The notes under the pieces are model-generated. The model was not told the DNA's origin. It saw nothing but the letters and a program-made list of their open reading frames with translations, and did no database searches. Shown piece by piece: positions 2,140-27,892 of a DNA stretch of 64,000 bases. The DNA is from Limisphaerales bacterium (GTDB lineage Bacteria; Verrucomicrobiota; Verrucomicrobiia; Limisphaerales; JADJPG01): positions 202,321 through 266,320 of the forward strand of contig JBGATF010000010.1 of NCBI GenBank assembly GCA_044229355.1, given 5' to 3'. Position numbers and translations under genes: made by a program. The number at the start of each line of letters is the position of its first letter. Within the stretch, counting starts at the first letter, position 1.

Positions 2140-2143
<4 letters not shown>
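575..2143 (-). CDS. TolC-like outer-membrane efflux factor (OMF family)
   Basis: ORF 575..2320; the likely true start is MTTNPNSLRTSGWVAALALAAVPAAAQ (signal peptide) at ~2143, which overlaps the stop of the upstream permease (ATGA). Two OEP-type repeats (LQECFDLALQENLDLQIER... and ...YNNALADLFQSEG) with a coiled-coil-rich middle are typical of TolC/OprM. Confidence 0.8.
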
Positions 2144-3357
<1,214 letters not shown>

Positions 3358-3379
3358 GGGCGGGGCGGTTCGGCGGCGC

Positions 3380-4141: not shown

Positions 4142-4194
4142 GGGGTGGGTGAGCGGGCCGGTTCGGAGGTTCGCAGGTCAGTGGTCCGCTTGAC

Positions 4195-5673: not shown

Positions 5674-5890
5674 GTTCGTGTCAAAATCGCGGCCGGCCGC
5701 CTCCCGCAGGGAAGCGCACTCGAGCGGCGAATGGCAGACAGCATCCACAGGCTGCCGCTTGAGAAAAGGATATTCTTCAGGACCGGAAGTCAGTCCAACC
5801 CGGCCTCACCCAGGACGAACCGCGGCGCAGGTCGGTGAAGATTTCTGGAGCCCGATGTCCTAAAGACACGGCGAGAGCGACCGGGTTACG

Positions 5891-6058
5891 GGGGATTGAA
5901 GAGGGGGAGGGGGGAGGGGCGAGTGATGAGTGATGAGTGATGAGTGATGAGTGGCGAGGGACGAGGGGCGAGGGGGCGACTGATTTCGGCGTTCGGCGTT
6001 CGACGTTCGGCGTTCGGCGTTCGGCGTTCGGCGTTCGGACTTCGGACTTCGGACTTCG
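5891..6058. repeat. contiguous block of heptamer tandem arrays: (GAGGGGG)~3, (GAGTGAT)~5, (GCGAGGG)~3, (GCGTTCG)7, (GACTTCG)3
   Basis: Read directly: 5921-5954 gagtgatgagtgatgagtgatgagtgatgagtgg. 5989-6058 is gcgttcg x2, acgttcg, gcgttcg x4, gacttcg x3. The G-rich heptamers at 5891-5920 could form a G-quadruplex on the + strand. The block is intergenic, between the hybrid HK 3' end and the macA 5' end. Confidence 0.9.
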
Positions 6059-6082
6059 AACTTTTGACTCTGACCCGTGGGC

Positions 6083-8902: not shown

Positions 8903-9327
8903 TACCCGGCGAGGGCTTTCATGACCTCGACGAGCGAGTGGAACGAGACTGGTTTGGCGATGAATGAGTTGGCCCCGAGGTCATAGATGCGCTCGATGTC
9001 GGTGTCGGCGCGCGAGGTGGTCAGGACGACGACGGGGATGCGGCGCAGTTCGGGGTGCAGCTTGATTTCGCGCAGGGCGTCGCGCCCGTCTTTTCGCGGC
9101 ATGTTCAGGTCGAGCAGGATCAAGCCGGGCCGGGGCGAACGGGCGGGGTCGAGATAAGGGCCGCGCCGCAGCAGATAGTTCAGCAGCTCCTCGCCGTTTT
9201 CAACGCAGTGCAACTCCGCGGACACCTGGCATTCCGCGAGGGCATCCCGCGCGAGCAGACGGTCGTCGTCGTCGTCGTCGGCCATGAGGATGACGGCGCG
9301 CTTCGGGTTGAGGTTGGCGGAGCTCAT
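8863..9327 (-). CDS. single-domain response regulator (CheY-like)
   Basis: 154 aa: VILMADDDDDDRLLARDAL...LILLDLNMPRKDGRDALREIK...VVVLTTS...ANSFIAKP. Complete REC and no output domain. 4-nt overlap with the upstream kinase stop. Confidence 0.8.
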   Translation of the reverse strand: MSSANLNPKRAVILMADDDDDDRLLARDALAECQVSAELHCVENGEELLNYLLRRGPYLDPARSPRPGLILLDLNMPRKDGRDALREIKLHPELRRIPVVVLTTSRADTDIERIYDLGANSFIAKPVSFHSLVEVMKALAGYWFNLVELPAAAP

Positions 9328-11156: not shown

Positions 11157-11259
11157 ATTATCGGATTCGGGAAGGGGCTCTTAACCGGGATCCGGGCGAT
11201 GGCGGCGGCGGCGCAGGCGGGGCTGGTCTAAGGCTGTGGGTTTGTCGTAGCCTTGGGCT

Positions 11260-12099
11260 GTGAGCCAGCCGATTCAAGACATGGGGATCATTGCCGGGGC
11301 GCGGACGTTGCCGTTGTTATTTGCGCGCCAGGCGCGGGCGATGGGCGTGGGCCGGCTGGTGGCGGTGGCCTTCACCGGTGAGACCTCGCCGGAAATCGCG
11401 GCGGTGGTGGACGAGGTGGTCTGGCTGAAAGTTGGGCAGCTCGGCAAATTGATTCAGGCGTTTACGGAGCGCGGGGTTCGCCGGTGCGTGATGCTGGGGC
11501 AGATTGCGCCGCGCAATCTGTTTGATGTGCGTCCGGACCTGCGCGCGATGGGCCTGCTCTTGCGCCTGAAGGAGCGGAATGCGCACACCATATTCGGCGC
11601 GATGGCGGACGAGCTTCAGAAGGAAGGGGTTGAGGTGGTGGAGGCCACGCCCTGGCTGCGTCCGCTCATGCCAGGGCCGGGATTTCAGATCGGGCGCCGT
11701 TTGACGGACGAGCAGGGTGCCGACGTGCGATTTGGCTTTCGCATGGCCAAGGAGATCGCGCGGCTGGAGATTGGCCAGTCGGTCGTGGTCAAGCAGGGCA
11801 CGGTTTTGGCGGTGGAGGGGTTCGAGGGCACGGACAAGTGCCTGGCGCGGGGCGGAGAGCTGGCCGGCAAGGAGGGCGGGGCGGTGGCCGTGAAGGTGGC
11901 GCGGGAGAAGCACGACATGCGATTTGACGTGCCGTGCATTGGGCAACGAACCATGGAAGTGTGCGCGTCGGCGCGGGTGTCGGTGCTGGCGGTGGAGGCA
12001 GGCCGGACGCTGTTTCTAGAGGAGGCTGAATTGGAGGCGCTGGCGAAGCGCCACGGGATTACGGTGCTGACGACCGACGGGTCGGGGCCGACGGCTTGA
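11260..12099 (+). CDS. lpxI: UDP-2,3-diacylglucosamine hydrolase LpxI (DUF1009 family)
   Basis: 279 aa. N-terminal MGIIAGARTLP; motifs GQSVVVKQGTVLAVEGFEGTDKCL and RFDVPCIGQRTMEVCASARVSVLAVEAGRTLFLEEAEL match the LpxI N- and C-domain architecture as I remember it. Confidence 0.7.
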   Translation: MSQPIQDMGIIAGARTLPLLFARQARAMGVGRLVAVAFTGETSPEIAAVVDEVVWLKVGQLGKLIQAFTERGVRRCVMLGQIAPRNLFDVRPDLRAMGLLLRLKERNAHTIFGAMADELQKEGVEVVEATPWLRPLMPGPGFQIGRRLTDEQGADVRFGFRMAKEIARLEIGQSVVVKQGTVLAVEGFEGTDKCLARGGELAGKEGGAVAVKVAREKHDMRFDVPCIGQRTMEVCASARVSVLAVEAGRTLFLEEAELEALAKRHGITVLTTDGSGPTA

Positions 12100-12130
12100 A
12101 GGGCTGGTTTCCGGGCGGTTCCTGGCGGCG

Positions 12131-12577
12131 TTATTCGGCCGCGGGGGAGAGGACGCGGCGCGTGACGAAGCCGGCGGCGATGAGGCCGGCGACGATGGCG
12201 ATCCAGCGGAACTGCCCTGAATTCTCGGCCCAGGTTTCCTCGGCCGTGGAGGGCTGGGCGACGGGGGTGCGCGCGTTGGCGAGAACGCTGGAGGTTTCTT
12301 CGCGGAGGCTCGTGGCGAGGTTGGTTTTGAAATTCATCCGTTCCTCGTGGCGGACGCGCGCGAGGCGATCCCGGTCGGCTTTGGATTCGCGGCCCATGCG
12401 ATCGCGCCATGCGCTTTGCTGCGCGAGACTGGCGTGTTCCAGCTCGGGCGGGAGCGGGTCGATGGCGAGAGCCGGCAGCGATGCCCCGGCGAGCAGGGCG
12501 GCCGCCACGGCGGCGTGCAGGCGGGGACGACGGGTCCCCGTGGGGGCTGTCCGGGCGGATTGAGTGCTTCGGCTCAT
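12131..12577 (-). CDS. hypothetical secreted/membrane-anchored protein
   Basis: 148 aa. N-terminal signal peptide (LHAAVAAALLAGASLPALA) and a C-terminal hydrophobic helix (FRWIAIVAGLIAAGFVTR). No recognisable domain. Confidence 0.35.
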   Translation of the reverse strand: MSRSTQSARTAPTGTRRPRLHAAVAAALLAGASLPALAIDPLPPELEHASLAQQSAWRDRMGRESKADRDRLARVRHEERMNFKTNLATSLREETSSVLANARTPVAQPSTAEETWAENSGQFRWIAIVAGLIAAGFVTRRVLSPAAE

Positions 12578-12601
12578 GGAATAGGCGCGGGATCGCGGCG
12601 G

Positions 12602-14311
12602 TTACTGGCCGGTGGAGATGGAGGTGGACGACGTTGAGCAGAAGCCCTCGATCGGGGCGATCTCGGTGAAGCTGGAGATGCGGCAGAGGGCCGCCTTGGG
12701 CAGGCCAAGATCGATGTAGCGATTGGGATCGGTGGAATACCGGCTATGGATACGGGAGTCGTAGTTGAACTTCGCGGTCGACGTGAAAACGATGGCCTCA
12801 TCGCGGGAGATGATGGCGCCGTTCATGACCAAGTTGGCGCGGGCGGGCCGCATGGCGGCGGCGTGGTTGCAATAGAAAATTCCCTCGAGCTTGTTGAAAT
12901 CATTGGAAGAGAGCGTGTCGTAGTCAACTGGCGTGGAACTCGAGCCGGACGTCGGATAGCCCTGGATCCGGTTGGCGCGCGCCGTGTTCATGATCACGTC
13001 GTTGGAATAATTGTAGGCCTGATCGACCACGCCATCGCCATCGGAGTCATACCAGGCGCTGTTGGGCTCACCGGTGCCCGACGTGTTCCAGAACTTAACT
13101 CCGTCATCGGCGGTGCCGGGGATGCCGTCCGCCCCGAGATTGCCTTCCGCGCCCACCCATTTGAGGCCGTAGGGGCTCGGGTCGACACAGGCCGCTTTCC
13201 AGGCGGAGCTGTTGACCTGGCCGCCGAAGATGCTTTCGCGAACAGCGAACGCGATGAGGTCCTTGTTGGCGTCGAGATTGTTTTTGACCCAGGAATCCCG
13301 CGCGGTGGAATTTTGCGTCTCGGGGGGCGTGCTGAAATCGGGCCCATTGACGTAGGTCATATCGCCGGCGATGTAGAGGCTGCCGCCAACGTAGAGTGTG
13401 CCCTGGCCGGTGATGGGGCCGGAGATGATGACGTCGCCGGGGATGACGACGGGCCCGTTGATGCGGATGGGGTTGGCGGCGGTGCCTTTGAGGTAGAGTC
13501 CAGGCTGGCTGCTGTTGGTGTGGACGGCGGAGACGAGGAGGGTGCTGCCGACGGAGAGAGTGCCGCTTTTGGCCGCGGCGATGGACTCGTAGTAGGCGAA
13601 GCTTTTCAGATTCGGCATTTGCAGGCGGGGCGCGCCGTCGTGGAGGTAGCTGACGGGATCCGAGCCGGCGAGGCCGCTGATGGGGACGCTGCCGCTAAAG
13701 CGGTCGATGCGGGTTCCGTCGGAGGAGATGTTGCCGGACGCGAGAACGACGCCGTTGACGGAGGGGCTGCCGCGGAAGTCGAAGTCACCGTTGGCGCGGT
13801 TGCCGCCGTTGCCGGTGATGCTGGAGCCCCACCACCAGCCCCAGTTGTTGAGGAAGTACTCGTAGTCGAAGACCTCGCTGGGCGGGTTTTTGAGCACGGT
13901 GGCGCGGACGGTGCGCACGCGGTTGCCGACCTTGGCGGAGGCGGTGACGAGGAACTGATTGGCCTCGCCGCTGGGGTGGTTGCCGATGGTAAGCCAGGCA
14001 TCCTGGAAGGCGGTCGTTCCGGACCCCCGGAGGTTGGCCATGTATTCCATGCTGATGCCGTTGCCGGTGACGGAATAGGTGCCGATCGGGCTGGCGGTGT
14101 CGGCGATGTGCTGGGCGCCCCAGTTGAGCACGTTTTCGGCGTGATAGAATGCTTCGGACGTGTCCCAACGATGATGGGACGCGCGCAAGCGGTCGCCGCT
14201 GAAGGACAGCAGGCTCAGCGCGCCGATTCCGAGGAGAAAGCCGAAGACGACGACACCGATGAGCACGGAGCCGGTCTCGTTCCGGGCGGGTTTTAAATGA
14301 TTTGATTTCAT
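12602..14311 (-). CDS. GspK/PulK-like minor pseudopilin, unusually large (~570 aa) with beta-helix-like repeats
   Basis: N-terminus (R)NETGSVLIGVVVFGFLLGIGALSLLSF resembles the GspK anchor (GS-h-L-I-x-V-L... hydrophobic). It lies downstream of two prepilin-type genes. Gly-rich repetitive segments (VVIPGDVIISGPITGQGTLYVGGSLYIAGD) suggest a beta-solenoid. The start is ambiguous (14329 or 14311). Confidence 0.45.
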   Translation of the reverse strand: MKSNHLKPARNETGSVLIGVVVFGFLLGIGALSLLSFSGDRLRASHHRWDTSEAFYHAENVLNWGAQHIADTASPIGTYSVTGNGISMEYMANLRGSGTTAFQDAWLTIGNHPSGEANQFLVTASAKVGNRVRTVRATVLKNPPSEVFDYEYFLNNWGWWWGSSITGNGGNRANGDFDFRGSPSVNGVVLASGNISSDGTRIDRFSGSVPISGLAGSDPVSYLHDGAPRLQMPNLKSFAYYESIAAAKSGTLSVGSTLLVSAVHTNSSQPGLYLKGTAANPIRINGPVVIPGDVIISGPITGQGTLYVGGSLYIAGDMTYVNGPDFSTPPETQNSTARDSWVKNNLDANKDLIAFAVRESIFGGQVNSSAWKAACVDPSPYGLKWVGAEGNLGADGIPGTADDGVKFWNTSGTGEPNSAWYDSDGDGVVDQAYNYSNDVIMNTARANRIQGYPTSGSSSTPVDYDTLSSNDFNKLEGIFYCNHAAAMRPARANLVMNGAIISRDEAIVFTSTAKFNYDSRIHSRYSTDPNRYIDLGLPKAALCRISSFTEIAPIEGFCSTSSTSISTGQ

Positions 14312-14349
14312 GGGTGTAAACGTCGACACCGCATCCCTGCGTGCTGGGG

Positions 14350-14943
14350 TCAGTTCCGATACCGGACGGTGAAATAGCGGTTGACCGGGATCTTCTTAAA
14401 ACTGTTGGTCGACGCGCGGCGCGTCGAATAGCCGTCGTCATCGAACTTCATCACCACGTTGATGGTGGCCCGGTCGAGGACATTTCCCGCCTTGAGCGCG
14501 GGGTAAAAGTAAACGTCCCGCAGCGCGGTCATCTTGTCGGGCTTGAACAGGACCACTTCGTCGCCGTTCACGTTCCGGTTCGGGTCGTGGTAGAGCTTGC
14601 CCGTGTTGGCGTCGAAGTAGAGTTGCTGGCGCGGGCTCGAAGCGTTCGTGGCCACGATAACGCGGCGGAAGAACGTGGGGTTTCCGGAGACGGCATCCAC
14701 AAACTCGGTGGATTCTGTTGCGCTCATGGAGCGCAGGATCTGGGCGACCCGATCCTGGACGAGGCCCGCCCGGCTTTGAACCGAGCCATCAGCCAGCCCG
14801 CGCTTCTGTTCCAGGGCCATCTGGAAAACGAGCGTCAGGATGGCTCCCACGACCAGGACCGAGACGGACGCAGCCATCATGACTTCCATGACGGTATACC
14901 CTCGCCGGCCCGGGCGGCGGTTGGGATGAAGGTTGATTTTCAT
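14350..14943 (-). CDS. prepilin-type N-terminal cleavage/methylation domain pseudopilin (GspJ/PilW-like)
   Basis: N-terminus ...RRGYTVMEVMMAASVSVLVVGAILTLVF has the class-III signal G|[FY]T[LV][MI]E followed by a hydrophobic helix. Confidence 0.6.
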   Translation of the reverse strand: MKINLHPNRRPGRRGYTVMEVMMAASVSVLVVGAILTLVFQMALEQKRGLADGSVQSRAGLVQDRVAQILRSMSATESTEFVDAVSGNPTFFRRVIVATNASSPRQQLYFDANTGKLYHDPNRNVNGDEVVLFKPDKMTALRDVYFYPALKAGNVLDRATINVVMKFDDDGYSTRRASTNSFKKIPVNRYFTVRYRN

Positions 14944-14958
14944 GGCAGGCGGGCTGGG

Positions 14959-15478
14959 CTAGAGGTCTCGGAACCGCGCGAGATCCATGCGGGCGGTCAG
15001 CTTGCCTCCGCGTTGCAGCGGGGCGTCCCAGCGGAACTCGACCTTCAGCTGTTTAGTGTAGTCCGTCCCGCCCTGTTGCGTCGTGGTCAGGATGACCCGC
15101 ATCTCCGGGTTTCGCGGCGTGAGCCAGACCAACTCGGGATGGAAGACGGTGTAGTCCACGCTGGAAATGCTGAACCAGCTCTCGCCGGCGGGAATGCGGA
15201 TGTTGGGCGTGCCGCCGGTGCCGTCGCAAATGCCGTTCAGCGCGCAGCCCCGTTTCAAATCCGTGAACGGAATGGCTTTCGCGAGCTCCAAGTAGTGTTC
15301 GGCGAAATCGAGGACGACGCCGCTGTCCTTGTCCTTGGCGGTTTGGATGCGGCTGAGGGCCATGCTCGACATGCCGGCCATGACAAAAACCCCGACCAGC
15401 GTCATGGCCACCACCACCTCGATCATGGTGAAGCCCGCGGCGCGCCCTAATCGGCGGTAAATTTTACTCGTAACCATG
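14959..15478 (-). CDS. prepilin-type pseudopilin (GspH/I-like)
   Basis: Track ORF 14959..15753; the plausible start is MVTSKIYRRLGRAAGFTMIEVVVAMTLVGVFVMAG at ~15478. The GFTMIEV prepilin motif is clear. Confidence 0.6.
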
Positions 15479-15778
15479 CCCACACGTACCTTTCCGGCGG
15501 TCCCATCAGCAAGTCGCATTCCCGTGAACGGACTGCGCCCTGGCAGCGGGATCGCCAGATGGATAATCGCCAGAACAGGCCGGGCCTTTAATGCGTTCGC
15601 GGGCCTGGTCCGGGTGAACGCCAAGGATGCGTGTCCTGGATTGGGACACGCCTGTCTGGAGGATGGACTTGGGTCGACTTCCGCATTGCGCGGGTGCCGC
15701 GGAAGATCTATTTGTCTCGGCCACGCTGGCTGGGCCGGCCTGGCTGGCGGCAAGGAATTTTTGGTTTGTGATCATAAC

Positions 15779-16306
15779 ATGACGTCTCATGAATTGTTCG
15801 GAGTGATGCCACGGGCCGTGGCGGAAGAGATCCTGGAGTTTGCCCATTCCAAGGAGAAACCGGTCTATCGCGCGGCGCTGGAAGCGGTGGCTGGGGCGCG
15901 GAAGGTTCGCGCCGTGTTTCTCGAGCGCCAGCCCCGCGCGGAGCGTTATGAGGCCATGATCACCTCGTTGAGCCGCCCGCAGATGGAGATGGCCGCCGAC
16001 GGGCTCATCCGGAACTGGCTCTTGAAAGGTCACGCCGGAGTACTGAGCGGCTTCATGGACGCGCTGGGAATTGCCCATGAGAATGGCGTGGTGAACGAGT
16101 TGCCCGCTGCTGTGGACGACGCCCGGCTGCGCAATGCCGTGGAGGCAATTCTCTCCCGGCACCCGGCGCCGGCGGTGGCGGTGTATCTGCACGCGTTCAA
16201 CGGCATGAACAGTGAAAATTGGGCCAACCTCGAGGCCCTCCTCCGGGCCGAGCCGCGACTGCAGTGGTCCAGCTTGGCCGCGCCGACCGCCGGCCGGCCG
16301 GCCTAG
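15779..16306 (+). CDS. hypothetical protein (helical)
   Basis: Track ORF 15476..16306; the likely start is ATG 15779 (MTSHELFGVMPRAVAEEILEFAHSKEK...). Upstream of that the ORF reads antisense to the pseudopilin gene. No recognised domain. Confidence 0.35.
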   Translation: MTSHELFGVMPRAVAEEILEFAHSKEKPVYRAALEAVAGARKVRAVFLERQPRAERYEAMITSLSRPQMEMAADGLIRNWLLKGHAGVLSGFMDALGIAHENGVVNELPAAVDDARLRNAVEAILSRHPAPAVAVYLHAFNGMNSENWANLEALLRAEPRLQWSSLAAPTAGRPA

Positions 16307-16371
16307 ACGGAATCGCCTCGTGGACCAGGCTTGGGCTTGACAGTTGGTCGCGGTGGGATTGGCATCGCGCC

Positions 16372-17160
16372 ATGCACACGACCCCAATCAAACAGTTGTT
16401 TACCCTGGCCCTCGGCCTTTGCGCCCTCATGAGTTCCTCCTCGATCCTGCCGGCGGCCGAACCGGACTCCCGTTGCTTCGAACTGCGCACTTACTACGCG
16501 GCCGAGGGCAAGCTCGACGATTTGAACGCGCGCTTTCGCCAGCACACGTGCGCCCTCTTCACCAAGCACGGAATGGAAAACATCGGCTACTGGATGCCGA
16601 TCGAGAACCCTGACCACCAGCTGATTTATCTGCTCGCATTTCCCAGCCGCGCGGCACGTGACCAGTCCTGGAAGGCCTTCGGCTCGGACCCGGAATGGCA
16701 GAAGGTTGTCAAAACCTCCGAAGCCCACGGCCGTCTGGTGACGAAAGTTGAGTCGCGTCTGCTGACGGCGACGGATTTCTCTCCGGCCGTTCGGACTGCC
16801 CTGAAGAATCCGGAGCGGGTTTTTGAGCTGCGGACCTATACGGCGTCCCCGGGCAACCTGGGGGCCCTCGACAGCCGGTTTCGCGACCACACGGTCGCGC
16901 TTTTCCGCAAGCACGGCATGGAGAACTTTGGCTACTGGCATCTGCTGCCGGGACAAAAGGGCGCGGACGAAACGTTGGTCTACCTTCTGGCCCATGCCAG
17001 CAAGGAGGCCGGGGACGCGTCCTTCAAGGCCTTCCGCGAGGACCCCGACTGGGTGGCCGCGCGCAAGGCTTCCGAAGAGAAGGCCGGGGGTTCGTTGACG
17101 GCCAAGGATGGGGTGAAATCCGTTTTCCTGAAACCAATGGATTATTCGCAGACGAAGTAA
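16372..17160 (+). CDS. NIPSNAP-family protein with tandem NIPSNAP domains and signal peptide
   Basis: Starts MHTTPIKQLFTLALGLCALMSSSSILPAAEP (signal). Two repeats: FELRTYYAAEGKLDDLNARFRQHTCALFTKHGMENIGYW and FELRTYTASPGNLGALDSRFRDHTVALFRKHGMENFGYW. Confidence 0.65.
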   Translation: MHTTPIKQLFTLALGLCALMSSSSILPAAEPDSRCFELRTYYAAEGKLDDLNARFRQHTCALFTKHGMENIGYWMPIENPDHQLIYLLAFPSRAARDQSWKAFGSDPEWQKVVKTSEAHGRLVTKVESRLLTATDFSPAVRTALKNPERVFELRTYTASPGNLGALDSRFRDHTVALFRKHGMENFGYWHLLPGQKGADETLVYLLAHASKEAGDASFKAFREDPDWVAARKASEEKAGGSLTAKDGVKSVFLKPMDYSQTK

Positions 17161-17232
17161 GGTCGTTTCCGCCGGGGCCACGTCTGGCTCCACTCGCGGT
17201 GTGACGATGGGGCGGACCTCGCGTGTCGTCGG

Positions 17233-17898
17233 TTGGCGGCATCTTTACCGATCTTGCGAAAAGGGCGATCGGATGGCGGGGGCGGGCTCCTGGGCATTGT
17301 CCCTGCTCCCGTTGGGCGCATGAACGCGCCAGCGCACGGGAATCCCGGCGGTGCCGGGGAAGCGGACACTGTCATCCTTCACCTCAGTCGATTCGCCCAT
17401 GGGGCGATGGAAGGTGCGGGGTCGGAATTTGAGGATGACGGCGAGACGGCGCTGATTCGGAAGGCGGCGGTGGACACGGTGGCGCACACGGAGAAGCCGG
17501 TCATCGTGCCGCAGTCGGCGGCGCCCCTGTCTCCGGATGAATTGCTGGGGGCGGTGGCGTATTGCTATGTGAAGGGGGTGTTCAGCTCGGATGACGTGGA
17601 GCGCAAGATGTTGCGCGACCCGGAATTTCGGGAAGCGCTGGATGGAGTGGTGCCCGACCCGGCAACCATCCGCCGGTTTCGGCGACTGAACCGCGAGGCG
17701 ATCCAGACGGTGCTGGAGAAATTCTACGCGATCCTGCGCCAGCGCCAAAAGAACGTCCGCGAAGCCTCATTGGCCTGCGGGCCGGATGGCAAATCCTGCC
17801 CGCCGGTGGAAGGCGGCAACACGGCGGTGTTCGTGAAGCGCGAGGCCATCGACCAGCTGGACCGTGCCACGTTTGTGGATCGCATGTCCGATTTCTGA
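17233..17898 (+). CDS. DUF772 (IS5/IS1182-family transposase N-terminal domain) protein with no DDE domain; possible IS remnant
   Basis: Segment LLGAVAYCYVKGVFSSDDVERKMLRDPEFREALDGVVPDPATIRRFRRLNREAIQTVLEKF matches the DUF772 consensus as I remember it (LL...Y..SdR.le..l.d...FR.F.G....PDhsTlsRFRnRL). The ORF stops ~60 aa later and no DDE catalytic domain follows. The start is uncertain (17233, 17320 or 17407). Confidence 0.35.
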   Translation: MAASLPILRKGRSDGGGGLLGIVPAPVGRMNAPAHGNPGGAGEADTVILHLSRFAHGAMEGAGSEFEDDGETALIRKAAVDTVAHTEKPVIVPQSAAPLSPDELLGAVAYCYVKGVFSSDDVERKMLRDPEFREALDGVVPDPATIRRFRRLNREAIQTVLEKFYAILRQRQKNVREASLACGPDGKSCPPVEGGNTAVFVKREAIDQLDRATFVDRMSDF

Positions 17899-17907
17899 GC
17901 AGCCGGC

Positions 17908-19314
17908 TCAGAACTCCACGGGGCTCTGGCGCGGAATTTGTCCGGCGAGTTCCTCGGCAGGGTAGGTCCAGATCTCAGCCAGCGTCGGGTGGTAGTGGGG
18001 AGTTGCGGCGAGTTGATGGACCGCGAGCCGGCCGGCCATCGCCACTACGATCTCGTGGATGAGCTCTCCGGCGGCCGGCCCGACGCAGGTTCCACCCAGA
18101 ATTTCACCCGTTTGGGGATCGGCGAGGAGTTTCACAAATCCATCCCTGGCTTCCATGATCAGAGACTTGCCGTGGTCCTGAAATGGATACGTGGCGACAA
18201 GGTGCGGCACCGAGCCGGCCCGGGCCGCTTCCTCAGTCAGGCCGACGCCGGCGAGGGCCGGCTCGGTGAAGATGACGAAGATCAGCAAGCGATAGTCCAT
18301 CGACCTGAGCCGGTCCGGCGTCAGAATGTTTTGCGCGGCCGTCTCGCCTTGCTGAATGGCGATGTGGACAATCTCATACGGGCCCGTGCAATCCCCGGCG
18401 GCAAAGATGTGCGGGATTGAGGTTCGCTGCTGAGCGTCCGTCACGATGCGCGGCCCGACGGTGACGACGCCAGCGTTGGCCAGCGCGAGCGGCTCTGTGT
18501 TCGGCATCCGGCCCAGCGCGACGAGGATCTCGTCCGCGCGCGCTTCCAACGTTTGGCCATCCTGCTCGAAGGTGACAACCTTCTGTCCGCGGTCCACGCG
18601 TGCGTCCAGCAGTTTTGTGCCGGTGTGCAGCCGCAGCCCTTCATTGCGCAACGCGTTCTCCACCGCCAGGGCAGCGTCGGCATCGAAATCACGCAGAATT
18701 CGGCGGCTGCGCTGGATCAAGGTGACGTCGACGTCGAAGCGGGCGAAGAACTGGGCCAGCTCGACGGCCACGGCGCCACCTCCGAGAACGATGAGCGAAC
18801 GCGGCGGCTGCGGCAGGCTGAGGGCTTCGTCGCTGGTGATGTACCCGACCGCGTGCAGGGCCGGCAGGGGCGGCGGAGCGACGGTCGACCCGGTGGCGAG
18901 GACGAAATGCCGGGCGGAGATCCGGCGCCCGTCGTCGAGGGTCAGCGTGTGGGCGTCAACGAACCGCGCGCCGGATCGGACGAACGCGAACCGCCCATCA
19001 GCGAGTTGCTGGCGACGATAGTCGGCGAAGTCCCGAATCTGGGCGTTTTTTCGCGCCATTACGGCGGTCCAGTCAAATGGCACCGGGCCCGGCTGCAAAC
19101 CCCAGGTGGCGCCGTGACGGGCGAGGTGGCGGACTTCGGCGGCATACAGCAGGGCTTTGGTCGGCATGCAGCCGCGAAGAATGCAGAGCCCGCCGACCTC
19201 GCGTCCGCCTTCGAGCACGGCGGTTTTCAGCCCGCCGGCGGCGGTGGTGCGGGCGGCGGCGTAGCCGGCGCTGCCGCCGCCCACCACGATGACGTCATAA
19301 TCGAAGGCGCTCAT
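17908..19314 (-). CDS. class-I pyridine nucleotide-disulfide oxidoreductase (dihydrolipoyl dehydrogenase / mercuric reductase / transhydrogenase family)
   Basis: 468 aa. FAD-binding YDVIVVGGGSAGYAAA, redox-active disulfide GGLCILRGCMPTK, NAD site VLGGGAVAVELAQ, C-terminal dimerisation domain with HPTLAE. Confidence 0.75.
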   Translation of the reverse strand: MSAFDYDVIVVGGGSAGYAAARTTAAGGLKTAVLEGGREVGGLCILRGCMPTKALLYAAEVRHLARHGATWGLQPGPVPFDWTAVMARKNAQIRDFADYRRQQLADGRFAFVRSGARFVDAHTLTLDDGRRISARHFVLATGSTVAPPPLPALHAVGYITSDEALSLPQPPRSLIVLGGGAVAVELAQFFARFDVDVTLIQRSRRILRDFDADAALAVENALRNEGLRLHTGTKLLDARVDRGQKVVTFEQDGQTLEARADEILVALGRMPNTEPLALANAGVVTVGPRIVTDAQQRTSIPHIFAAGDCTGPYEIVHIAIQQGETAAQNILTPDRLRSMDYRLLIFVIFTEPALAGVGLTEEAARAGSVPHLVATYPFQDHGKSLIMEARDGFVKLLADPQTGEILGGTCVGPAAGELIHEIVVAMAGRLAVHQLAATPHYHPTLAEIWTYPAEELAGQIPRQSPVEF

Positions 19315-20138
19315 GATTCCTTGGCTGGCGCCCGCCGAAGCCGGCGCGGATGCGAATACACATTCATGCGATCGTCGCGCAGAAAGCCAACCAGGGTCTG
19401 GCCGCTGCGCGCCGCGAATTCCACGGCCAGGCTGCTTGGCGCCGACACGGCCGCGACAATCGGGATGCCGGCGGCGAGAGCTTTCTGGACGATTTCAAAC
19501 GACGCACGCCCGCTGACGAGAAGGGCGTGATTGGCCCAGGGCAGGAGGCCATGGAGCGCTCCGTAACCCACGACCTTGTCGACCGCGTTGTGGCGTCCCA
19601 CGTCTTCACGGACCACGAGCAAATTGCCGGAGGCATCGGCGAGGGCGGCCGCGTGCAGCCCGCCGGTGCGGGCGAAGGTGGGTTGAGCGAGACTGAGTTC
19701 CTCCGCGGCGCGGCGCAGCGCGTGCGGGGAAATGGTGACACGGCTCTTGACGGCGGGAAAGTGCTGGTGAACGGCGGCAATCGACGCCTTCCCGCACAGC
19801 CCGCAACTGGAACTCATGTAGACGTTGCGGCGCAGCCGTTCGAGGCTGATGGGAACGTCCGCTGCGAGGAACACCTGAAGAACATTGCCACCGCGAATTC
19901 GTGGGTGGGGACGGATGCGGGCGATATCAGCCGCCTGCGTGATCAGCCCTTCGGTCCAAAGGAAGCCGGCGGCCAGTTCGTCGTCGTGGCCGGGGGTTCG
20001 CATGGTCACGACCACAGGTTGAGTCTCGACCTGGATCTCCAGCGGTTCCTCAACCGCCAGTTCGTCGATGGCGGTTCTGGGCTGCTGGCTCCGCCGCCAG
20101 CGGAGGACGCGGCGGCGCGCAGTGGTCGCTGTGCCCAT
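19311..20138 (-). CDS. fdhD: formate dehydrogenase accessory sulfurtransferase FdhD
   Basis: 275 aa. TPGHDDELAAGFLWTEGLI, catalytic SCGLCGK, VGRHNAVDKVVG. 4-nt overlap with the downstream oxidoreductase. Confidence 0.8.
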   Translation of the reverse strand: MGTATTARRRVLRWRRSQQPRTAIDELAVEEPLEIQVETQPVVVTMRTPGHDDELAAGFLWTEGLITQAADIARIRPHPRIRGGNVLQVFLAADVPISLERLRRNVYMSSSCGLCGKASIAAVHQHFPAVKSRVTISPHALRRAAEELSLAQPTFARTGGLHAAALADASGNLLVVREDVGRHNAVDKVVGYGALHGLLPWANHALLVSGRASFEIVQKALAAGIPIVAAVSAPSSLAVEFAARSGQTLVGFLRDDRMNVYSHPRRLRRAPAKES

Positions 20139-20148
20139 GCCCGGGCGC

Positions 20149-20688
20149 TTACTGGGCGGTCTTGGCGGTCTCGATCAGCTTGCGAAACTGCGGCTGGGAT
20201 TCCTTCACGAGTTTGGCGGGGCCGGTCATGCGCACAAAGACGTTGCCCTCGTCGCTTTCGAGGATCGCGCCGAGCAGCATGGCGTTGGCCTGGGCGGTCT
20301 TGGCCCCACCGGGCATGCCGCTCAAGTAGGTGCCTTCGGCCTGCACGAGCGTGGCGTTGCGGCCACCGGCCTTGATCTGTTCCGTCTTGCTGTTGAGCTT
20401 CTCCCGCGGCTCCTGGAACTGGCTTAGCCAGCGGTCGATGTTGGCCTGGGTGCCGCCCGCGCCGCCTGCGCCGAAGAAAAAGAAGACAACCTCGGCGGTC
20501 GATTTGTCGGCGCCGGTGACTTTCAACTGGGCCTTGCGCATGGCGGAGGTCGTCTCGACCCAGCTCCAGCTATCCGGGCGGGTAAAGGTGAACTCGCTGA
20601 CCTTGAACGTGGCCGGAGCGTCGGCCGCGACCGCGGAGCTCAGGGCCGCCAGGAGTGTGGTGAAGGTGATGAGCACGAACGTTTTCAT
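20149..20688 (-). CDS. hypothetical secreted protein
   Basis: Track ORF 20149..20730; the likely start is MKTFVLITFTTLLAALSSAVAADA (signal peptide) at 20688. No recognised domain. Confidence 0.4.
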   Translation of the reverse strand: MKTFVLITFTTLLAALSSAVAADAPATFKVSEFTFTRPDSWSWVETTSAMRKAQLKVTGADKSTAEVVFFFFGAGGAGGTQANIDRWLSQFQEPREKLNSKTEQIKAGGRNATLVQAEGTYLSGMPGGAKTAQANAMLLGAILESDEGNVFVRMTGPAKLVKESQPQFRKLIETAKTAQ

Positions 20689-20970
20689 ATTAATTCGTCG
20701 AGGAAACCAATGCGTTTGTCTGGCCGTCATGCTGTCGAACCGACGTCCGAATGCAAAGCAGTTTCTCCGCCTCGGGGAACGTCCGGTCTTTCATGGCAAT
20801 CTTTTTGCCGAACATCTTTCTTCCATCGCTTTTTCGGCCGGGGAGCGGGAGTGCCCTCCGGGACGAAAATGCCGGCGACGACGAATCGGGATTGGCAAAA
20901 AAATGTTGGGCAAAAAGATTGCCCGTACAAACCGCCTGGAATCGATCAGTCGCCACTGGGGAATCCACGA

Positions 20971-23052
<2,082 letters not shown>

Positions 23053-23079
23053 TTAACTGAACGGCAGGGGGAGAAGTGC

Positions 23080-23137
23080 GAAGTCCGGCGTTCGACGTTT
23101 GAAGTTTGAAGTTTGAAGTTTGAAGTTTGAAGTTTGG
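23080..23137. repeat. heptamer tandem repeat (GTTTGAA)5 preceded by cgaagtccggcgttcgacgtt, related to the 5.9-kb repeat block
   Basis: 23097-23137 gtttgaa x5 then gtttgg. The 13-mer ggcgttcgacgtt is identical to 5995-6007. cgaagtccg is the reverse complement of cggacttcg at 6036-6044. Confidence 0.85.
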
Positions 23138-23138
23138 T

Positions 23139-24083
23139 CTATTCCTCCACGCGTGTGGGCACCCAATCGACGGTGCGGAGCTCTTCGTTGAATTCGAATT
23201 CCGATTTGCCCTGGATCGAGTCGCCGTCGAGGACGCCCCAGTATTTGGTCACCGTGACGGTGCCGAACCGCTCGCGCTCGACTTCGAATGAAATATTTCC
23301 GTCTTTGAATGTCGCGTTGGTGATTTCGGTGTCGCCGCTGCGACCTTTCATTTTGCCCGTCAATTTGTCGCCTTCGAGCTTGAGCACGACCTCGCTGCGG
23401 AAGCCGCCGCCGCGTCCGGCTCCGCCGCCGCCCGAACGTCCGCCCGGGGCGGGACCCTGGCTGGCACTGGAGTTGGCGGTGGTGCCGGCTCCGGTCGCTC
23501 CCGCGCCAGCGGCATTGCCGGTCCCCGGTCGTCCGCCTCCGGGGCCGCGTCCGAAGTTCACCTCCCACCGCCAGGTGCCGGTTGGCGAATCCGAGGCGCG
23601 CCGAGCTTCCCACGGATAGGTCGCCTTTTCCCCGGTCCAATCCGACTCGATCGTGCCGTTCAGCAATCCTTCGGTCAGCCGCCCCGAGTAACGGGTGGTG
23701 ACCTTGCGGCCCGCGTGTTCGCGCACGACCAACCAGCTGACGCGGTCGCCGTCGACATGACCGTCGCTGATGGGGACCTCGGTGCCTGGGCCGATCAGCG
23801 ACGTGCCAGTGAGGAGGTTGCCGTCGAATTTAATCCTGGCGCGCGGCTGGGACTTTGTTCCGTCGGGCATGATGAAGGTCCACTTCCAGGTGCCTTGGAG
23901 CTTTGGCTTGGCCGGCAACTCGGCCGCCAGCGAGCTGCTCGCGTAAAGAGCGAGCGCGGCGACGAGCCCGAGGGTGGCGTGCAGCGCCCGGAGCGGCCGT
24001 GCCGCGGCGAGGCGACGGCCCTCGCTGTGCAGGAGGGGAGAAGGAAGAGTGGGCATAGGATGGTTGGGGTTGCTGCGCGTCAC
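23139..24083 (-). CDS. hypothetical secreted two-domain protein with Gly-rich linker
   Basis: 314 aa. Signal peptide (LHATLGLVAALALYASSSLAAE), two beta-rich halves separated by GRGPGGGRPGTGNAAGAGATGAGTT...GGRSGGGGAGRGGG. Confidence 0.4.
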   Translation of the reverse strand: MTRSNPNHPMPTLPSPLLHSEGRRLAAARPLRALHATLGLVAALALYASSSLAAELPAKPKLQGTWKWTFIMPDGTKSQPRARIKFDGNLLTGTSLIGPGTEVPISDGHVDGDRVSWLVVREHAGRKVTTRYSGRLTEGLLNGTIESDWTGEKATYPWEARRASDSPTGTWRWEVNFGRGPGGGRPGTGNAAGAGATGAGTTANSSASQGPAPGGRSGGGGAGRGGGFRSEVVLKLEGDKLTGKMKGRSGDTEITNATFKDGNISFEVERERFGTVTVTKYWGVLDGDSIQGKSEFEFNEELRTVDWVPTRVEE

Positions 24084-27000
24084 GGCGTGCGCGCCGGCAC
24101 GGCGTAGCGCAGGGAGATTTTTTCCTCGTTGCGGTTGTTACGGCCGCTGAATTTGACTTCCATTTTGCTTCCGTGGTCGATGACGGTGACGAAGCCGAAG
24201 CCGCCCTCGCCGTCGCGCTCGCGGACGCGATACACGCCCTGGCTGTAGGGGCCGCCTTTGAGCGACGGGTTTTGGTCGAGAGGCGCGGCGCACATGACGG
24301 GGATGTGGACGCCGCCGCCGGTGGCGAAGTCACCATTGCTCCCATCATCTGCCGCCAGCATGTGGGAATCGCCGTGGAGGATGGCGACACCCTGGATGTG
24401 GTTTTCCTTGATGAAGTCGCAGATCTCGCGGCGCTCGGTGGCGAAGACGCTCCAATGATCCTGGTCGCCGATCGACGGGGCGTTGGTTTGCGCGCCGCCG
24501 CGACCGCCGGTGCCGCCGCGGCCGCCGCCCGGACCGCGCGCACGTCCGCCGTCCCGGTTGGTCCGCGCGGAGGGCGAATTGGTCAATGTGGTGTGGTGCA
24601 GATAACCCCAGTCGTTGGTGGTCACGCGGTAATAGTTGGTTCCGATCTGGCCGAGCCATGGGACGGTGCTGACCCAGAAGATGACGGGATATTTGCCGTT
24701 AGCCGCCAGCAGCTCTTGCTTGAACCACTCCTTTTGCCGGGCGCCCATCATGGACTTGGTCGCGTCGTCCTTGTTTGTGACGGAGTCCCGCTCGGAGCGC
24801 AGGTCAGTGATGATGAATTTAGTCCGGCCGACATTGAAGGACTGGTAAATCGCCTCGGGGCCTGCGCCGGTGACCAGAGGATAATGCGGGACATATTCCC
24901 GGTAGGCCATTCGGACGGCTTCGTGCGACAGGGCGTTTTTGTTGGCGTTGTTTCCGCCGTAATCGTGGTCGTCCCACACGTAGAAAAAGGCCGTGCTGCG
25001 ATAGAGTCGGGATTGCTGGGGCGAGGTCAGGACCAGGTCGTAGGCCTGACGGAACTTGTCGATGCTGCTGTTCGTCAGATCGAGATAATGAAAGTCCCCG
25101 ATGTTCATGTAGAACAGCGGGTGATTTTCGCGAATGGCGTCGAAGATGTCGCTGGTCGATGCCGTGCGTGCGCACGAGGCATAGGCGAAGCTGAACGATT
25201 TCGGGTCCGGTGGAAACGTGCGAAACTGCCCGCTCTTGCCGCGCTCCAGGCGGCCGTTCACTTCAACGACGTAGTAATATTGCGTGTCGGGCGCGAGCTG
25301 GCTGAGCTGGAATGCGACGACGTCGTAATGACTGGTGGACGATTGGGCGGGCCCGAAGTAGCGAAGGCCGGTGAGGTTTGATCTGGTGGTGAGGCCGAGG
25401 CGCGCATGCAGGCCGGGGCGGGAGAGCCGGACCTTGGCGTTGGCTTCGGTGGTGGCGACACCTCCGACCCACGGCCCGCGGGCGATCTCGGAATAGGCCA
25501 CTCCGAGCTGTTCAAAAAGGAATGAGTAACGATCCACGCGCTGGGCCACCCGTTCGTCGAGGGGGGTACCCAATCCATGCCCGCTCGTGGCGCTGGTGCG
25601 CAGCAGCACGGGACGACGCGACGCGGTGGCGGTCTGGAGGCGCGCGGCCATCTTGCGGGAGTGACCGGGATTGACCCGGCCGTCGTGCGCCCCGGTCATG
25701 AGGAGCACGGCCGGATAGGCCACCCGGTCGGTCACGCGGTGGTACGGGGAGTAGGCGTGCAACGCCTTGAATTGCGCCGGATCTTTGACCGAGCCGTACT
25801 CCGTGGTGTTGAATTGACCGTTGGGATCCAGTTCCACCCGCAACATGTCGAACAAGCCGACTTCAGCCACCGCCGCCCGGAACAGGTCCGGCCTCTGGGT
25901 CAGGGCGGCTCCGACCAACAGTCCGCCGTTGCTGCCGCCATGGATGGCCAGCCGGGCCGCTGACGTGTAATTCGATCGGATGAGCAGTTCGGCGCAGGCG
26001 ATGAAATCGTCGAAGACATTTTGCTTCTGCAACAGCCGGCCCCCGTCGTGCCACGCTTCGCCGAGCTCACCGCCGCCCCGCAGGCGCGCGATGACGACCT
26101 GGCCGCCTTGATCAAACCAGACCCGCCGCGTGAAGTCGAAATGCGGCACCTGACTGATGCCGAAGCCACCATAGCCCGTCAGGATGGTCGGCGTCTGGCC
26201 GTCCAGGGACTGGCCACGCCGGCGCAGAATGGTCATCGGGACGCGGGTCCCATCCTTCGAATGGGCGGCCGCCCGCACGACTTCGATATCCCGGAAGTCC
26301 GCCGGGGTGATCCCTTCGAGCGCGGTGTCGAGCATGCGCGTCGGGCTGACGGCCGGGTTGTAGACCTGCCATTCATATGGCGCGGTGTAGGTTTCGGTGC
26401 GGACCAGCACCTCATCGCCCCGGGGGCAGAACATCTCGTCGACCGCGAACAGGCTGTTGATCGGCAGGCGCCACTCGTTGCGCGGACCGCGCGGCGGCCG
26501 GCCGGAGCGCCCTTCGTCCGCATTCGTCGACCCGGTTGAATTCGGATTCGCATTGGCTCCACCGCTTTCCGGTTCCTGCCCGGACGTGTTGCCTTCCGCA
26601 TTGCTCGCCGATCCGGCGGCCGGGGTGTTTCCGGTCTGGCCCTCCTGGTTCTCGTTGGATCCCGCGGCCTCTGAAGATTCGGTTTCGCCCGATTCCGGCT
26701 GGCCGGTGGCCGACAGATAGAAATCGTGAAACCGGAGCGAGGCCGCCCCGCCGATGCGGTCTTCGATGTACAAACCGCGGGCCGAGGTCACGAAACTGGC
26801 GATGGCGTTGGTCCGGGCATTGATGACCTCGATGGCAGCCGAGAGCCGTTCCTCGGCCAGGGGCAGCCGGAGGATTCGTCCCATCGGCGCGTCCTTCGTC
26901 GACAAGAGGTAGAGCGCGTTGTCCCGCGGCCACTCGATGTAGATGGGGTCGCGACCGAACTGGATCGACTTGACCTTGTCGGCCGCTCCCGCGACTTGGC

Positions 27001-27892
27001 GCCACTTCCCCGCCGGGTCGCGCAGAAAGTGCAGAAAATCTCCGCCGTCACCGTCGCCCACCGAGGCCAGCAGGTATTTGCCGTCGTCGCTTGTCTTGAG
27101 CTGCACCTCGCCGATGCGGGGAAATTCGCGCCCGAGCTCGTAGCGATCCGCGGCGGCGGGCGTGCCGAGTTGATGGAAATAGACCTGTTGATAAAAGCGC
27201 GCGTCGGCTGGCGGGCGTTCCTCCGGCGCCGGGTAGCGAGTGTAGAAGAAACCCGAGCCGTCGTGGCTCCACGCCACGCTGCCGCCCGCCGTGGGGAATT
27301 GGACACGCGGGATGATGTCGGCGCGCCGCGTTCCGGAGGCGACTGCAAACACGTAAAGAGTCCCAGCCTCGCTGCCGGATTCGGACAACGACACCGCGAT
27401 GAGGCTGCCGTCGGGCGACGGCTCGTAAAAATCGATGCTGGTGCCGCCGCGGGGATCGAGGGCGTTGGGATCGATGACGACCCGTTCCGAGGAAAGATTG
27501 GTCAGCGACGTGAAGGTCACGAGGACCGACTGTTGCGCGGGCGGCTTGAACGCGATGGCGAAATACGCGCCGCGCCGCGCGCGCAGGTCGGAGTAATCCG
27601 CCGACACCACGCCGTAGAGTCGCTCCAGCTGGTAGACCAAATCCTTCCTCGTCGGGAGTGAGTCCAGGTGTTCGCGGGCGGCGCGGTTCTGGGCTTCCGT
27701 CCAGGTGCGGACCGCCGCGGATTCACCGTTCTCCAGCCATTGATACGGATCCTCCACCGCGATCCCGTGATAGTCGTTGCGGACAGGCTGGCGGGGGGTG
27801 CGCACCGTGGCGGCGGGGGAATCGATTCCGGTCAGCCAGCAGAAAATCGCGACGGCCAGCATGGACATGGCGTTCGGGCGAAGGCGGTGCAT
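24080..27892 (-). CDS. secreted fusion protein: prolyl oligopeptidase (S9A, N-terminal ~810 aa) plus PhoD-like metallophosphatase (C-terminal ~450 aa)
   Basis: One continuous 1270-aa ORF. N-terminal signal peptide; YHGIAVEDPYQWLEN (POP N-terminal motif), a beta-propeller region, catalytic GGSNGGLLVG / AHDGRV / SGHG triad. Then the PhoD_N beta-sandwich (YYYVVEVNGRLERGKSGQFRTFP) and PhoD motifs FAYASCAR, GDFHYLD, WDDHDYGGNN, GDSHM. A ~90-aa low-complexity insertion (QPESGETESSEAAGSNENQEGQTGNT...) sits in the POP part. Confidence 0.75.
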   Translation of the reverse strand: MHRLRPNAMSMLAVAIFCWLTGIDSPAATVRTPRQPVRNDYHGIAVEDPYQWLENGESAAVRTWTEAQNRAAREHLDSLPTRKDLVYQLERLYGVVSADYSDLRARRGAYFAIAFKPPAQQSVLVTFTSLTNLSSERVVIDPNALDPRGGTSIDFYEPSPDGSLIAVSLSESGSEAGTLYVFAVASGTRRADIIPRVQFPTAGGSVAWSHDGSGFFYTRYPAPEERPPADARFYQQVYFHQLGTPAAADRYELGREFPRIGEVQLKTSDDGKYLLASVGDGDGGDFLHFLRDPAGKWRQVAGAADKVKSIQFGRDPIYIEWPRDNALYLLSTKDAPMGRILRLPLAEERLSAAIEVINARTNAIASFVTSARGLYIEDRIGGAASLRFHDFYLSATGQPESGETESSEAAGSNENQEGQTGNTPAAGSASNAEGNTSGQEPESGGANANPNSTGSTNADEGRSGRPPRGPRNEWRLPINSLFAVDEMFCPRGDEVLVRTETYTAPYEWQVYNPAVSPTRMLDTALEGITPADFRDIEVVRAAAHSKDGTRVPMTILRRRGQSLDGQTPTILTGYGGFGISQVPHFDFTRRVWFDQGGQVVIARLRGGGELGEAWHDGGRLLQKQNVFDDFIACAELLIRSNYTSAARLAIHGGSNGGLLVGAALTQRPDLFRAAVAEVGLFDMLRVELDPNGQFNTTEYGSVKDPAQFKALHAYSPYHRVTDRVAYPAVLLMTGAHDGRVNPGHSRKMAARLQTATASRRPVLLRTSATSGHGLGTPLDERVAQRVDRYSFLFEQLGVAYSEIARGPWVGGVATTEANAKVRLSRPGLHARLGLTTRSNLTGLRYFGPAQSSTSHYDVVAFQLSQLAPDTQYYYVVEVNGRLERGKSGQFRTFPPDPKSFSFAYASCARTASTSDIFDAIRENHPLFYMNIGDFHYLDLTNSSIDKFRQAYDLVLTSPQQSRLYRSTAFFYVWDDHDYGGNNANKNALSHEAVRMAYREYVPHYPLVTGAGPEAIYQSFNVGRTKFIITDLRSERDSVTNKDDATKSMMGARQKEWFKQELLAANGKYPVIFWVSTVPWLGQIGTNYYRVTTNDWGYLHHTTLTNSPSARTNRDGGRARGPGGGRGGTGGRGGAQTNAPSIGDQDHWSVFATERREICDFIKENHIQGVAILHGDSHMLAADDGSNGDFATGGGVHIPVMCAAPLDQNPSLKGGPYSQGVYRVRERDGEGGFGFVTVIDHGSKMEVKFSGRNNRNEEKISLRYAVPARTP

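Follow-up and report, generated by a model that had tools for sequence, protein, structure and literature searches.

Two compound arrays of seven-nucleotide units lie within the 64,000-nucleotide stretch of Limisphaerales DNA analysed here (the window), one upstream of a macA-like gene (locus 1) and one upstream of the DNA ligase gene ligA (locus 2), and most likely they are young, lineage-specific expansions rather than duplicates of a mobile element or of a regulatory one. Both loci have a 7-nt periodicity, draw on a shared unit family, are lineage-specific and occupy intergenic positions at gene 3′ ends. We consider them probable heptanucleotide simple-sequence repeats (SSRs) of the class of long SSRs with units of 5 to 11 nt (LSSR(5-11)), similar to the short tandemly repeated repetitive (STRR) sequences, which would have grown by slippage and been tolerated in spacers past gene ends. 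The DNA, from a soil-type bacterium, is Verrucomicrobiota-like by its LigA homologues and has a GC content of about 64%. The arrays and the sequence that they share are located as follows.

23062-23138, plus strand: compound heptamer array of locus 2, with a 7-nt period and about 10 units in register, in the spacer between the stop of a hypothetical gene and a promoter-like core of ligA

23097-23136, plus strand: perfect (GTTTGAA)5.7 core of locus 2 (Tandem Repeats Finder, TRF: period 7, 100% matches, score 80; a period scan agrees)

23086-23099, plus strand: locus 2 copy of the shared 14-mer CGGCGTTCGACGTT, from units GGCGTTC and GACGTT(T)

5896-6079, plus strand: compound heptamer array of locus 1, about 26 units, between the stop of a CckA-like kinase gene and the macA promoter region

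5994-6007, plus strand: locus 1 copy of the 14-mer CGGCGTTCGACGTT, inside the (GGCGTTC)n array

The spacer that holds locus 2 measures 128 bp from the TAG of the hypothetical gene to the ATG of ligA, both genes being on the minus strand. In register the array reads GGGAGAA, GTGCGAA, GTCCGGC, GTTCGAC, (GTTTGAA)x5, GTTTGGT; moved by three bases, from 23069, it reads GAAGTGC, GAAGTCC, GGCGTTC, GACGTTT, (GAAGTTT)x5. The (GTTTGAA)5 run already described in an initial annotation of this DNA is thus a perfect array of 5.7 copies, which appears as (TTCAAAC)n on the strand of the flanking genes. Locus 1 passes through (GGGGGAG)3, (GAGTGAT)4.7, about four copies of GAGGGGC, (GGCGTTC)7.7 with one GACGTTC, about four copies of GGACTTC and a GAACTTT, and TRF reports period-7 runs of 7.7 copies at 95% and 4.7 copies at 100%. 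Within the 64-kb window, arrays were found at period 7 and at none of the other periods from 4 to 12. The units stand head to tail without spacers, the arrays are longer than expected by chance and they are intergenic, with heptamers being the commonest unit length in the lineage, all of which are features of LSSRs.

The two loci are related beyond chance, and the relation is that of one heptamer family favoured by the genome. The 13-mer GGCGTTCGACGTT had been reported as identical at 23087-23099 and 5995-6007, which is correct, the exact match being one base longer (CGGCGTTCGACGTT). Allowing at most one mismatch, the 13-mer had six matches against 0.32 expected. Any shared 13-mer was seen in 6 of 20,000 shuffles of both loci, confirming that the sharing is above chance, and in none of 683 other 184-nt windows compared with locus 2. 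Two consecutive GRMSTTY units occurred 16 times, always in one of the two loci and on the plus strand, against 0.26 expected from shuffles. With a G-rich piece included, the similarity covered about 41 nt in a local alignment, at a score of 30 against a null maximum of 29 in about 290 trials. Sequence similarity between the two loci is confined to the heptamer unit family and a G-rich lead-in of about 12 nt.

The shared sequence is not diagnostic of an element, as the 13-mer arises where two common unit variants meet and was found inside arrays at nine unrelated loci. Likewise, CGAAGTCCG (23078-23086) is indeed the reverse complement of CGGACTTCG, present three times in locus 1, yet it is uninformative: of 83 unrelated loci from relatives, 19 contain it. 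The 16-mer that had been called an imperfect palindrome pairs at only six of eight positions. The initial view that these are not two independent microsatellites is right in that the loci are related beyond chance; the arrays are nevertheless of the microsatellite type.

Comparison with the nearest relative (GCA_044230345.1, contigs L001 and L202), whose LigA is 82% and whose DNA is about 80% identical, revealed that both arrays are lineage-specific. The window aligned by blastn in the following segments.

627-5778: aligned to contig L001 of the relative

6083-18642: aligned to contig L202 of the relative

21005-23047: aligned to contig L001 of the relative

23143-27816: aligned to contig L001 of the relative

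The only unaligned pieces near the arrays, 5779-6082 and 23048-23142, are exactly the array-bearing segments, and 5779-6082 gave no blastn alignment to either contig of the relative. There, the spacer between the hypothetical gene and ligA measures 64 bp and has no repeat, and comparison with it showed no duplication at the insertion point of locus 2. In the relative, macA comes directly after ligA, and the stop codon of the kinase is immediately next to a MatE gene. The reverse case was also found: the relative carries heptamer arrays in the spacer between the OEP and kinase genes, the orthologous spacer of the window (399-627) being without repeat. Presence or absence of arrays differs clearly at about 80% DNA identity. 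No match was obtained when metagenomes were scanned for the conserved promoter core of ligA in order to find strain variants of the array. The lack of conservation at orthologous spacers speaks against one of the possibilities raised in the initial annotation, a fixed site for regulation or recombination.

The relative's array in the OEP-kinase spacer (L001 17284-17446) consists of (GAATGAC)n followed, about 90 nt on, by its inverted complement in TTCGTCA/TTCGGCC units, with a fold z of −2.5. In a relative with 75% identical LigA, the ligA-upstream spacer (L002 9843-9925) bears a long inverted repeat, GTAGCATCCGACGTGAGCCGGATC ... GATCCGGCTCACGCCGGATGCTAC, which is not a heptamer array; the same locus has (CACGCAT)4 at 6918-6943, which stops 5 nt short of another gene's start codon. 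Two further contigs of about 97% identity differ by an indel (L190 2377-3049 versus L193 4009-5376), in which a low-GC segment directly downstream of ligA is replaced, 0.67 kb against 1.37 kb. Considered as an array difference, it turned out to be a strain-variable gene cassette unrelated to heptamers.

A block of about 15 kb between ligA and macA (window 5779-20970) has its aligning part, 6083-18642, on another contig in the relative. It encodes the CckA-like kinase, a second kinase with response regulator, LpxI, NIPSNAP, a DUF772 transposase fragment, a pyridine-nucleotide disulphide oxidoreductase and FdhD. Judged by the alignments, the block is a lineage-specific translocation with locus 1 at its junction; its other junction (20731-20970) has no array. 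The idea that copies lie at rearrangement points therefore holds for locus 1, which is exactly in the lineage-specific junction, and not for locus 2, which is situated in an otherwise syntenic spacer.

Heptamers predominate among short-period arrays of the lineage. In 973 kb of unselected DNA around ligA from 83 loci (80 metagenomic relatives, L001, L002 and the window), 19 of the 36 arrays with periods from 2 to 15 had period 7, with diverse units. The same ligA-upstream spacer contained unrelated heptamer arrays in other relatives, namely (ATTGCGG)4 in L131 and (CTATTCG)4 with (AATTTTG)4 in L175. Different arrays at one spacer point to repeated independent births and not to a conserved site. 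Outside the window, the sample contained no array of the GRMGTTY family; thus, among these relatives, the family shared by the two loci is specific to the source genome. Individual units do recur between relatives, GAATGAC being arrayed also in the more distant L170 and L172, and ATTGCGG in both L131 and L194. One array, (CAGAAGG)5, lies inside the ligA open reading frame (ORF) of a 65%-identical relative (L171 10697-10732, 36 nt), apparently in frame.

The units themselves recur across phyla, clustered by genome. A scan for (GRMGTTY)4, i.e. at least four units, in 185,579 genomes, one per species and with phyla taken from record titles, found at least 119 stretches in many phyla. The matches listed included about 30 from Verrucomicrobiota (a quarter), about 17 from Cyanobacteria (Nostoc, Calothrix and others), about 15 from Bacteroidota and about 11 from Acidobacteriota, besides Planctomycetota, Myxococcota, Chloroflexota, Streptomyces, Burkholderiales and Pseudomonas. 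Nine genomes supplied 21 of the 119 stretches among these matches, with two to four loci each, and one metagenome-assembled genome of Verrucomicrobiae had four separate GGCGTTY arrays. By arithmetic on the matches listed, this clustering is far above random draws from 185,579 genomes. Mixed arrays of the window's units are common elsewhere, in the combinations GGCGTTC with GACGTTC, GGCGTTT with GAAGTTT and GGCGTTY with GAAGTTT. The proposal of a dispersed repeat family is borne out in this sense, GRMGTTY arrays being dispersed within genomes as well as across phyla.

In other Verrucomicrobiota and one Acidobacteriota genome, arrays of GAAGTTT, GGCGTTY or GGAGTTT form inverted pairs around a short non-conserved loop (L048 6415-6518, L111 1175-1300, L056 2734-2844, and in L092, L095 and L108). 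The pair in L048 gives a near-perfect hairpin of about 45 bp with −69.7 kcal/mol and z = −9.9.

The position of the two arrays with respect to genes can be read from the neighbouring features.

23139-24083, minus strand: hypothetical gene of 314 aa, TAG stop at 23139-23141, 2 nt from the locus 2 array

23011-23056, minus strand: conserved promoter-like or 5′ leader core of ligA, AAAAAACTGTTCAAGC...ATTCCCGCTGATC (from alignment; blastn homology reaches 23047)

20971-23010, minus strand: ligA, NAD-dependent DNA ligase, downstream of locus 2 (Pfam matches, homologues)

6083-8902, minus strand: CckA-like hybrid sensor histidine kinase, stop at 6083-6085; homology to the relative ends exactly at the stop

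5880-5985, minus strand (sense strand of the flanking genes): C-rich, G-poor stretch of locus 1, 55% C and 8% G, unstructured as RNA and of a composition like that of Rho utilization (rut) sites

5737-5778, minus strand: conserved noncoding element upstream of macA, GAAGAATATYCTTTTCTC...GCCTGTGGATGCTGTC (alignment; blastn)

4195-5673, minus strand: macA-like gene for a membrane-fusion protein, first of the macAB-OEP operon, ATG at 5673 from alignment with the relative

From a start 2 nt past the hypothetical gene's stop codon, the locus 2 array extends to within 59 nt of the ligA ATG at 23010. At locus 1, the array begins about 12 to 18 nt past the kinase stop codon and, with the macA ATG at 5673, lies about 225 to 405 nt upstream of that gene. 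The mechanical ORF of macA starts at GTG 5748; as judged from the alignment, ATG 5673 (ATGACTGCGAAGAAACGATCC) is most likely the real start. Both loci are upstream of the minus-strand genes ligA and macA, as had been stated in outline, and since such arrays, across genomes, avoid divergent spacers and are nearer to the upstream stop than to the downstream start, describing them as just upstream of a start codon puts the emphasis in the wrong place.

Conserved sequence separates both arrays from the next gene. The ligA core is kept in relatives with 82% and 75% LigA identity, the array being located about 10 to 20 nt further upstream, and we infer that this core is the ligA promoter. The element upstream of macA is strongly kept in the relative at an overall DNA identity of about 80%; homology stops at 5778, about 120 nt short of the array. 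By its conservation, the element is a likely promoter or operator of the macAB-OEP operon. A scan for a sigma-70-type promoter consensus returned nothing in either spacer. The 314-aa hypothetical gene gave no Pfam match, and its orthologue was found in the nearest relative.

Placement across genomes agrees with that of the window loci. About 76% of heptamer arrays were outside predicted genes. Spacers with arrays were co-directional in 39, convergent in 13 and divergent in 4 cases, against 27.6, 13.0 and 15.4 expected by spacer length (chi-square p = 0.0014), and in co-directional spacers the median distance was 57 nt from stop to array and 93 nt from array to next start. These figures are rough, since they come from our own gene caller based on GC content at third codon positions (GC3), from loci of at least 52% GC and from a sample chosen for one motif family; gene overlap by longest ORF was dropped because arrays are open in most reading frames. 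Arrays avoid promoter-only DNA and gather just past gene ends, like both window loci. Array orientation showed no preference with respect to local GC skew (62 positive, 56 negative). In the window itself the skew is positive on the plus strand throughout (0.03 to 0.22), whatever the gene orientation, and most genes between 1 and 45 kb are on the minus, C-rich strand.

On the sense strand of the flanking genes, the composition is strongly biased, with 36% C and 9% G over 70 nt at locus 2 and 55% C and 8% G over 106 nt at locus 1. The heptamer parts are wholly unpaired in minimum-energy RNA folds (z = −1.7 and +2.7), and the locus 1 spacer RNA, at z = +2.7, folds worse than all of 200 shuffles. 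An inverted-repeat search found none in either array, and an Rfam search of the whole window gave no match at the gathering score.

The most probable course of events is a simple one. A few seed units would be extended by slipped-strand mispairing in replication or repair, point mutation would produce unit variants, and these would be amplified anew. The series at locus 2 may have led from GGCGTTC through GACGTTC/GACGTTT to GAAGTTT, and that at locus 1 from GGCGTTC through GGACTTC to GAACTTT. The source genome, like other array-rich genomes, would re-use a favoured unit family, G-R-M-G/C-T-T-Y, so that separate loci come to look related. Arrays would persist where they do little harm, i.e. in the non-conserved part of the spacer past the stop codon and upstream of the next promoter core. 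Slippage as the generator, near-neutrality and the order of unit mutations are what we infer here. Polymerase slippage has been proposed for such repeats, as has an explanation of the unit length by the stretch of about 7 nt of DNA that the polymerase holds, according to two accounts of the work of Mrazek et al. 2007 (PMC4679880, PMC4692102).

Several observations weigh against this explanation. Slippage alone leaves the re-use of one family at separate loci and its recurrence in distant phyla unexplained. Loci 1 and 2 also share the G-rich lead-in, the order of unit types and the orientation to the flanking genes, which may be a sign of a common template or of formation by a polar process. 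The extreme composition of the sense strand (36 to 55% C, 8 to 9% G) makes a role in transcription termination conceivable. In the one array-bearing contig pair of 99.96% identity, both members have (GAATGAC)3.4, with no difference in copy number. Finally, the placement statistics depend on a rough GC3-based heuristic and a motif-selected sample.

A Rho-loading or insulator role for the arrays is possible in view of their composition. As an alternative account, the arrays would be rut or insulator spacers that stop read-through before the next promoter, which we regard as unlikely. It would fit with the long C-rich, G-poor and unstructured RNA that the upstream minus-strand gene would have as its 3′ tail, rut regions taking at least about 60 to 80 nt past a stop codon and the agreement being confined to composition, with the failure of an intrinsic terminator scan to find a terminator in either spacer, and with the location of the arrays 2 to 18 nt past stop codons and, across genomes, preferentially in spacers with a gene 3′ end. 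However, among 48 co-directional spacers the sense strand was the C-rich one in 27 and the G-rich one in 18, which is no significant preference, and the orthologous spacers of relatives work without arrays. Moreover, tandem repeats biased to one strand are unstructured by construction, and rut sites have no defining sequence.

We assign a low probability to the view that GRM(G/C)TTY arrays are a cross-phylum, sequence-specific class of elements made or kept by a dedicated process. This could be a polar synthesis on a template at junctions where DNA is repaired or rearranged, or a binding protein that reads heptads could select for the arrays. Such a process would explain the recurrence of units in Verrucomicrobiota, Acidobacteriota, Planctomycetota, Cyanobacteria, Bacteroidota and Actinomycetota, the clustering by genome, the preference for 3′-end over divergent spacers and the frequent inverted pairs with hairpins of about 45 bp. 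It would also account for the shared polarity and G-rich lead-in of the window loci and for the presence of locus 1 in a fresh junction.

Taken by itself, the version with a trans-acting protein that reads one unit per 7 nt, so that selection keeps one family per genome, is lower still in probability. Candidates would be a nucleoid-associated or regulatory DNA-binding protein, or a single-strand binder of the cold-shock type; in the case of TAACTGA repeats, binding of one cold-shock protein to each heptamer has been considered (PMC4679880). Genome-specific families at separate loci (the nine genomes with 21 of 119 stretches among the matches listed), GRMSTTY units at both window loci and recurrence of the same units in distant phyla are in line with binding. 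In contrast, neither position nor unit sequence is kept between close relatives, units drift freely within an array, and arrays avoid the divergent promoter spacers.

It is very unlikely that the arrays are copies of a miniature mobile element, of the kind resembling repetitive extragenic palindromic (REP) sequences as suggested initially, or filler DNA at recombination or repair junctions. The 41-nt similarity with its non-repeat G-rich piece in the same polarity, the position of locus 1 exactly in the lineage-specific rearrangement junction, the short flanks shared by two arrays elsewhere (L027/L062, L053/L055) and the hairpin-forming inverted pairs of other genomes (L048, z = −9.9; L001, z = −2.5) speak for this view. 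Yet the similarity score barely exceeds the null maximum (30 versus 29), locus 2 is fully syntenic, the junction at 20731-20970 has no array, and loops and flanks of inverted pairs differ between loci. Like the arrays, REP sequences, bacterial interspersed mosaic elements (BIMEs) and miniature inverted-repeat transposable elements (MITEs) are short, intergenic and dispersed, often past gene ends. REP/BIME elements, however, are defined by an imperfect palindrome of about 20 to 40 nt able to form a stem-loop, and MITEs by terminal inverted repeats, target duplications and a conserved body, and the window loci have none of these, nor conserved flanks.

Least probable, and hardly to be expected, are phase-variable contingency loci in which gain or loss of units alters promoter geometry and switches ligA or macAB. 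Hypermutability would be expected of perfect arrays (100% over 5.7 and 4.7 copies), and the two loci are upstream of genes. As an essential housekeeping gene, though, ligA is an unlikely target of on/off switching. The arrays lie upstream of promoter-like cores and not between promoter hexamers, in a 5′ leader or in an ORF, and the 99.96%-identical contig pair showed no polymorphism. That pathogens use intergenic SSRs for phase variation is well documented (PMC12721329, PMC2651432), whereas long SSRs of 5 to 11 nt typify large-genome environmental bacteria and not pathogens with contingency genes, as one paper has it (PMC4679880, citing Mrazek 2007). Clustered regularly interspaced short palindromic repeats (CRISPR) were rejected, since the units measure just 7 nt and follow each other directly, and for a G-quadruplex only the short (GGGGGAG)3 could qualify, on the non-sense strand.

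Heptanucleotide repeats grown by slippage, the reading that we favour, have well-described counterparts. As summarized in the two accounts of Mrazek et al. 2007, heptanucleotides are the most abundant class of long SSRs in many bacteria and are mostly intergenic; they also describe units peculiar to each genome, lengths that differ from one close relative to the next, and arrays that are compound or arranged in inverted pairs (PMC4679880, PMC4692102). The arrays of the window resemble LSSR(5-11) (Mrazek, Guo & Shah 2007; PMC4679880, PMC4692102) in head-to-tail order, length above chance, preponderance of heptamers, intergenic location and occurrence in environmental bacteria, and differ in their phylum, Verrucomicrobiota not being described in these accounts. 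A literature search for the units GGCGTTC, GGACTTC, GTTTGAA and GAGTGAT returned only synthetic probe arrays.

The cyanobacterial STRR sequences, like the GGGGA(T/C)T repeats described in Nostoc (PMC4692102), are tandem heptamers at many intergenic loci, each genome favouring a few units, and the arrays of the window, with two loci of one family in 64 kb, may be of that kind. Arrays of GGAGTTT/GGAGTTC, members of the family searched here, are also present in genomes of Nostoc and Calothrix. The window belongs to another phylum, and only in the small GGGGGAG part of locus 1 is there G-quadruplex potential. The GGGAATC repeats of Xanthomonas (PMC4692102) are likewise intergenic heptamers, sometimes in inverted pairs, that vary in length and sequence between close species at the same spacers, whereas the nearest relative lacks the window arrays at the orthologous spacers. 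The TAACTGA repeats of Beggiatoaceae, Cyanobacteria and Bacteroidetes (PMC4679880) are a family common to distant phyla, too, with compound arrays mixed with other heptamers, shorter repeat-free spacers in relatives and a suggested link to gene rearrangement. Most TAACTGA sets are located directly upstream of start codons, in one orientation and in 2 to 6 copies. In contrast, the arrays of the window and those related to them are nearer to stop codons and have no strand preference.

In summary, the two loci are a typical case of the long-known and unexplained excess of heptamers in bacterial intergenic DNA, here in the under-studied Verrucomicrobiota. Repeat loci of one genome that appear related can be draws from a favoured unit family, and awareness of this guards against over-calling mobile or regulatory elements. 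Units common to several phyla, clustering by genome, depletion from divergent spacers and inverted hairpin pairs sharpen the question of why the units have seven nucleotides and why these units are used. As the arrays mark very recent changes of spacers, including a rearrangement junction, they could serve as markers for strain typing.

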